From Escherichia coli (lineage in GTDB: Bacteria > Pseudomonadota > Gammaproteobacteria > Enterobacterales > Enterobacteriaceae), in the NCBI RefSeq assembly GCF_044324875.1, contig NZ_CP172185.1: a stretch of DNA of 64,000 nt; one strand, written 5' to 3'. A model generated the notes under the pieces. The model saw nothing but the letters and a program-made list of their open reading frames with translations, did no database searches and was not told where the DNA came from. A program made the translations under genes and the position numbers. Of the stretch, positions 49,279 through 49,464 are shown in pieces; the stretch's first letter is position 1, and each line of letters starts with the position of its first letter.

Positions 49279-49324
49279 AGCAACCTCAATTTATTCAGCG
49301 TGTTCTAAAAAGATGTCTTGCTAA

Positions 49325-49342
49325 TTGCAGATTGCGTGCCAG
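49325..49342 (-). promoter_or_regulatory. Candidate sigma54 promoter of norVW
   Basis: Reverse complement CTGGCACGCAATCTGCAA (TGGCAC-N5-CTGCA) about 47 bp upstream of norV start. Confidence 0.6.
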
Positions 49343-49396
49343 TTTTTTATCTGATTGTTTTTACTCTATAAATAAAATTGTGCTCATTAATGAGTA

Positions 49397-49452
49397 GTCA
49401 AAATGACTATCAATCAAATGGTCGATATGACAATATCTATAGTCAAATTGAC
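49397..49452. promoter_or_regulatory. Three candidate NorR enhancer sites (GTCA-N3-TGAC)
   Basis: gtcaaaatgac (49397..49407), gtcgatatgac (49421..49431), gtcaaattgac (49442..49452) in the norR-norV divergent region. Confidence 0.65.
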
Positions 49453-49464
49453 AGTGAGGCAAAG

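Follow-up and report, generated by a model that had tools for sequence, protein, structure and literature searches.

The norR-norVW control region of an Escherichia coli genome: three NorR enhancer sites upstream of a sigma-54 promoter

The three NorR sites, the IHF site and the sigma-54 promoter of Escherichia coli K-12 were reportedly described by Tucker et al. 2004, Justino et al. 2005 and Gardner et al. 2003, and NorR-type three-site enhancers in other proteobacteria are said to have been described by Busch et al. 2004. NorR recognizes three sites of the form GT-N7-AC; with any single site mutated, norV-lacZ is no longer induced, DNA no longer stimulates the ATPase and no open complex forms (PMC2831303). 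On longer enhancer DNA the protein assembles into a ring compatible with a hexamer, and IHF is reported to bind in the DNA that separates the enhancers from the start site (PMC2831303). The repression exerted by the GAF domain on the AAA+ ATPase is lifted by NO (PMC2831303, PMC4987338). In genomic SELEX with K-12, the norR-norV spacer was the only strong NorR target, and NorR regulates both norR and norVW (PMC8249747). The same spacer was bound by the RpoN holoenzyme in genomic SELEX (PMC8743547).

We have analysed a 64-kb stretch of E. coli DNA, referred to here as the window, in which the open reading frame list places an intergenic spacer of exactly 186 bp (49279-49464) between the divergent norV and norR genes. 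The spacer has the same length in K-12. On the minus strand, norV (47839-49278, ATG at 49278, 479 codons) belongs to the norV-norW operon (46709..49278), the regulated target, which encodes the flavorubredoxin NO reductase and its NADH reductase. On the plus strand, norR (49465..50979, ATG at 49465, 504 codons) encodes the NO-sensing GAF / AAA+ / helix-turn-helix enhancer-binding protein. The NorR product scores 823.6 bits against the equivalog model NCBIfam NF003451 (cut-off 476), and NorV scores 1045 bits over its full length of 1-479 against the equivalog model NF003954 (cut-off 711). NorW, encoded downstream of norV, scores 681.7 bits against NF003437 (cut-off 392). With all scores above their cut-offs, a NorR-type GAF/AAA+/HTH activator gene is found adjacent to an NO-detoxification operon, and the RefSeq annotation in matching genomes agrees with the norVW assignment. 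The window NorR is identical to K-12 NorR at 498 of 504 residues, with its GAFTGA and Walker A motifs intact.

The sequence-only reading had taken this spacer as the NorR-dependent control region of norVW and had proposed alignment to the K-12 region as a check. A 306-bp alignment with K-12 MG1655 (NC_000913.3, norR b2709 / norV b2710) is ungapped and contains two differences, at window positions 49384 and 49380, both in the spacer that separates site 1 from the AT-rich stretch, so that the NorR sites and the promoter are untouched. Each of the three 11-mers, the -24/-12 element and the leader is thus the same in the window as in K-12, as are the initial codons of norV and norR; on the norV strand, the window has CTCATTAATGAGCAC where K-12 has CTCATTAATGGGCAT. 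The two sequences also share the published 66-bp NorR-binding oligonucleotide (Tucker et al. 2010, PMC2831303), which matches the window exactly at 49392-49457 on the minus strand. The gene models, the K-12 alignment and the oligonucleotide match all agree with the earlier assignment, no observation speaks against it, and we regard it as practically certain that the region is the canonical E. coli norR-norVW control region. NorR binding and NO- and RpoN-dependent activation are established for the K-12 sequence with identical elements, and are predicted for the window.

It is noted that the A at 49384 is common to the other sampled E. coli and to E. albertii, K-12 being the odd one out. Positions 49383-49394, just on the promoter side of site 1, form a 12-bp palindrome, CTCATTAATGAG, that is perfect here and imperfect in K-12 (CTCATTAATGGG).

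All three inverted repeats that had been described in the spacer are present, at positions that differ by about 1-2 bp from those first given. The promoter-proximal site 1 (49397-49407) reads GTCAAAATGAC, or GTCATTTTGAC on the norV (minus) strand, and is centred at about -87. Site 2 (49421-49431) reads GTCGATATGAC (GTCATATCGAC on the norV strand; centre about -111) and shows one departure from GTCA-N3-TGAC. The promoter-distal site 3 (49442-49452) reads GTCAAATTGAC (GTCAATTTGAC on the norV strand; centre about -132). All three are GTC-N5-GAC palindromes with a GT-N7-AC core, located upstream of the norV promoter. The identification of 49397-49407 as site 1 follows from its being contained in the published 21-bp site-1 oligonucleotide, GATAGTCATTTTGACTACTCA (PMC2831303). 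The sites had been called evenly spaced; however, the centre-to-centre distance is 24 bp between sites 1 and 2 and 21 bp between sites 2 and 3, which is even at best approximately.

A fourth perfect palindrome, GTCACGTTGAC, is located at 49231-49241 inside norV, at codons 13-16 (G-Q-R-D), and the published 266-bp and 362-bp fragments terminate within it. It was considered as a downstream NorR site and rejected. The wobble base of the Gly codon varies (GGC/GGA/GGG) in 9 of 13 other taxa, with loss of the GTC half, and the amino acids G-Q-R-D-W over the palindrome are invariant among the compared taxa. The varying wobble base under an invariant protein motif suggests that coding constraint likely accounts for GTCACGTTGAC.

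Downstream of the three sites, as had been read from the norV strand, the -24/-12 sigma-54 promoter of norVW is present at 49341-49326 on the minus strand (TGGCACGCAATCTGCA; the reverse complement of 49325-49342 is CTGGCACGCAATCTGCAA). Its GG is found at 49340/49339 (-25/-24) and its GC at 49328/49327 (-13/-12), in the canonical spacing and on the strand of the target gene. With one mismatch or fewer allowed, the -24/-12 pattern has five matches in the window against 3.6 expected. The element is therefore not significant by count, and its support comes from position and conservation. From the position of the -12 GC, the norV transcription start (+1) would lie at 49315 on the minus strand, with the ATG at 49278 following after a leader of 37 nt. 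The published NorR methylation footprint has its limits at -137 and -84. With +1 at 49315, these limits coincide with the outer G of site 3 (49452) and the inner G of site 1 (49399), respectively; the putative start is thus consistent with the published numbering. A simple sigma-70 promoter scan found no convincing plus-strand norR promoter, so the norR promoter is not placed by the scan. Its sole match is weak, at chance level, and on the minus strand, overlapping sites 1 and 2.

An AT-rich stretch (78% A+T) separating site 1 from the promoter contains a candidate IHF-binding element, which we tentatively place at 49348-49360 on the minus strand (AAACAATCAGATA, two mismatches to WATCAANNNNTTR). 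With at most one mismatch, no match to WATCAANNNNTTR is found in 49343-49396, between site 1 and the promoter, and in this strict search the nearest matches fall only between NorR sites 1 and 2. In 10 of 14 aligned taxa, the IHF consensus occurs with 0-1 mismatches at 6 nt upstream of TGGCA, and the E. coli candidate is a two-mismatch version at the register of these relatives. The precise start position, the register of IHF and the way in which norR is autoregulated are to be taken as predictions.

Taken with the published work on K-12, these features fit the following mechanism. Three NorR dimers would occupy the palindromes centred at about -87, -111 and -132 and would assemble on the enhancer DNA into a hexameric AAA+ ring, kept inactive by the GAF domain. 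IHF may bend the AT-rich DNA between enhancer and promoter. Binding of nitric oxide to the GAF non-haem iron would release the ATPase, the ring would convert the closed complex of sigma-54 RNA polymerase at -24/-12 to the open complex, and norVW would be transcribed from about 49315.

We have compared the array with similar arrays in other genomes. A scan through 100,044 species genomes, in which three GTC-N5-GAC sites separated by gaps of 9-14 nt in either order were sought, matches at least 120 loci, most of them tandem-repeat noise in unrelated phyla, and gives neither frequencies nor an account of which norR loci are without the array. Among the matches listed, 25 loci (the window included) are not tandem repeats and stand beside NO-detoxification genes in gamma- and beta-proteobacteria. 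These loci were chosen by the presence of three sites, so that the conservation of the sites across species is partly built in. The array is found by norR and norV in Escherichia, Citrobacter, Enterobacter, Pseudescherichia, Klebsiella, Moellerella and Shewanella. It is found by genes for a GAF/sigma-54 activator and a flavohaemoglobin with globin, FAD and NAD domains (hmp) in Comamonas, Diaphorobacter, Rhizobacter and two further loci (L087, L122), and by nnrS in six Pseudomonas loci (L006, L024, L044, L049, L078, L113). The listed loci reproduce the regulon that Rodionov et al. 2005 (PMC1274295) described. The NorR enhancers of other proteobacteria at hmp, nnrS and norAB (PMC1274295) resemble that of the window in having three GT-N7-AC palindromes, a longer promoter-side gap and a downstream sigma-54 promoter. 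In contrast, they differ in the target gene and in the promoter-side spacing, which is usually 25 rather than 24.

A promoter element, TGGCA[CT]-N5-NTG[CA], is found on the target-gene side in 21 of the 25 loci among the matches listed. This element was outside the search pattern. In a 14-taxon alignment of the norR-norV region, TGGCA is invariant and the TG of the -12 element is kept, with T in at least 90% of rows and G in all. Site 1 and TGGCA stand at a fixed distance, which is 55-56 nt for the enteric norV loci, compared to 40-42 nt in hmp and nnrS loci.

Several Enterobacter norV promoters and the Pseudomonas nnrS promoters have TTGA or CTGA, not TTGC, at -12, and in the six Pseudomonas loci a TGGCAC-N5-(C/G)TGA element and the array precede nnrS. 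A PF06983 (3-demethylubiquinone-9 3-methyltransferase-like) gene starts beside the array in two loci (L049:3640-4260 and L121:2650-3147), and in L044 an N-terminal ORF fragment similar to these PF06983 genes adjoins it.

The unevenness of the spacing is common to the set. In all 25 listed loci, which are phylogenetically related, the two sites nearer the promoter have their centres 24-25 bp apart and the far pair 20-21 bp apart, and the outer site centres are about 45 bp apart, whether the target is norV, hmp or nnrS. The search accepted either order and any 9-14-nt gap; the long-then-short order is thus not an artefact of the pattern. The uneven spacing could fix how the three dimers of NorR are rotated relative to one another, with the hexamer then closing towards the promoter. 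We consider it rather doubtful that this uneven, directional spacing is a functional requirement and not an accident. It should be mentioned that site spacing is not discussed in Tucker et al. 2010 (PMC2831303), and that Tucker 2004, Busch 2004 and Bush 2015 may treat it. The 24/21 spacing refines the earlier picture slightly and is not a new discovery.

Two other explanations of the palindromes were weighed against the enhancer reading. The first is that they are mainly operators for norR repression, or are bound by another regulator such as FhlA, a related activator of the GAF type, and do not form a norVW enhancer. The placement of the sites is compatible with this: site 3 is located 13-23 bp 5' of the norR ATG and the whole array only 13-68 bp 5', from which the bound complex would also sit on the norR promoter or leader and be expected to damp norR. 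The literature has NorR regulating norR as well as norVW (PMC8249747), and a GTC-N5-GAC sequence occurs in the hypA-hycA spacer at 31253, the hyc/hyp enhancer also having GTCGAAATGAC. However, mutation of any one site abolishes norV-lacZ induction and open-complex formation (PMC2831303), and in the six Pseudomonas loci the array precedes nnrS with no NorR-like gene within the examined locus DNA, which argues that the array tracks the activated target and not norR. We judge this alternative very improbable; autoregulation is an additional role of the enhancer, not an alternative to it.

The hypA-hycA region itself is a divergent spacer region (31150-31470; hypA on the minus strand, hycA on the plus strand) with a sigma-54-type promoter at 31216-31201 (minus strand, TGGCACAATTATTGCT) and another at 31330-31345 (plus strand, TGGCACAGAAAATGCT). 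The GTCGAAATGAC-containing repeat at 31253, between these promoters, is probably the FhlA enhancer. A third TGGCAC-N5-CTGCA sequence is found at 31451, inside hycA. The FhlA/hypA-hycA system (about 31200-31345) shares with norR-norVW a GAF enhancer-binding protein, divergent genes, sigma-54 promoters and a GTC-N5-GAC-like half-palindrome. It differs in its activator, effector (formate) and enhancer consensus, in having two sigma-54 promoters instead of one, and in having no three-site array.

The second explanation concerns chance. Three GTC-N5-GAC sites within 60 bp (56 bp here) have a Poisson expectation of about 7e-4 per 64-kb window, and such a triple cluster arose in one of 300 first-order Markov simulations. 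At the local composition (32% G+C), 0.009 GTC-N5-GAC sites are expected per 186 bp. The three-site cluster is far beyond chance. The view that the palindromes cluster by chance in AT-rich intergenic DNA, and that TGGCAC-N5-CTGCA matches the consensus by chance, could appeal to the lack of enrichment of the -24/-12 pattern at one mismatch and to the commonness of lone GTC-N5-GAC matches (20 in 64 kb against 11.4 expected), but with the rarity of the triple, the identity of sites and promoter to an experimentally footprinted region, and a fixed-geometry array with its promoter kept across genera and target genes, we consider it more improbable still than the operator explanation. The exact correspondence with the characterised K-12 region already refutes it.

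Of 5426 complete E. coli genomes, 5425 have a wider 341-bp region and 5423 the 79-nt enhancer segment, the latter with 3478 records at 99% identity or more. The sampled variants (strains 7784, CEA212U and CKJ_1000_3.1, and E. albertii) have changes in the spacers only, and every one of them keeps the three 11-mers, the -24/-12 element and the leader. The arrangement had been described as fully conserved, and for the three sites and the promoter this is borne out in K-12 and in the sampled E. coli and E. albertii.

From the 341-bp and 79-nt counts, about two genomes retain the flanking region without the enhancer segment. In E. coli isolate AF3 (NZ_OZ547117.1, L002; blood culture, UK), the locus at 1580-1720 has an exact 45-bp deletion corresponding to window 49408-49452. 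The deletion joins site 3 to site 1 via a shared GTCA, leaving one NorR site in a 141-bp spacer, and the AF3 sequence from site 1 to the promoter is diverged to an unusual degree as well. AF3 is thus a rare natural isolate having lost two of the three enhancers. Because published single-site mutants are not inducible, we predict that AF3 would show little or no norVW induction.

The norVW switch of the window is already known, intact and ordinary, and the main value of the region is annotation. The conserved 24/21 spacing, together with the enhancer loss in AF3, is of modest value for NorR-based NO biosensors and for the study of enhancer-binding-protein assembly. For the organism, the window carries an intact wild-type NO switch, with a full-length NorV of 479 residues, an intact NorR and three enhancers, each indispensable according to the published work, from which the strain is predicted to induce anaerobic NO detoxification normally.
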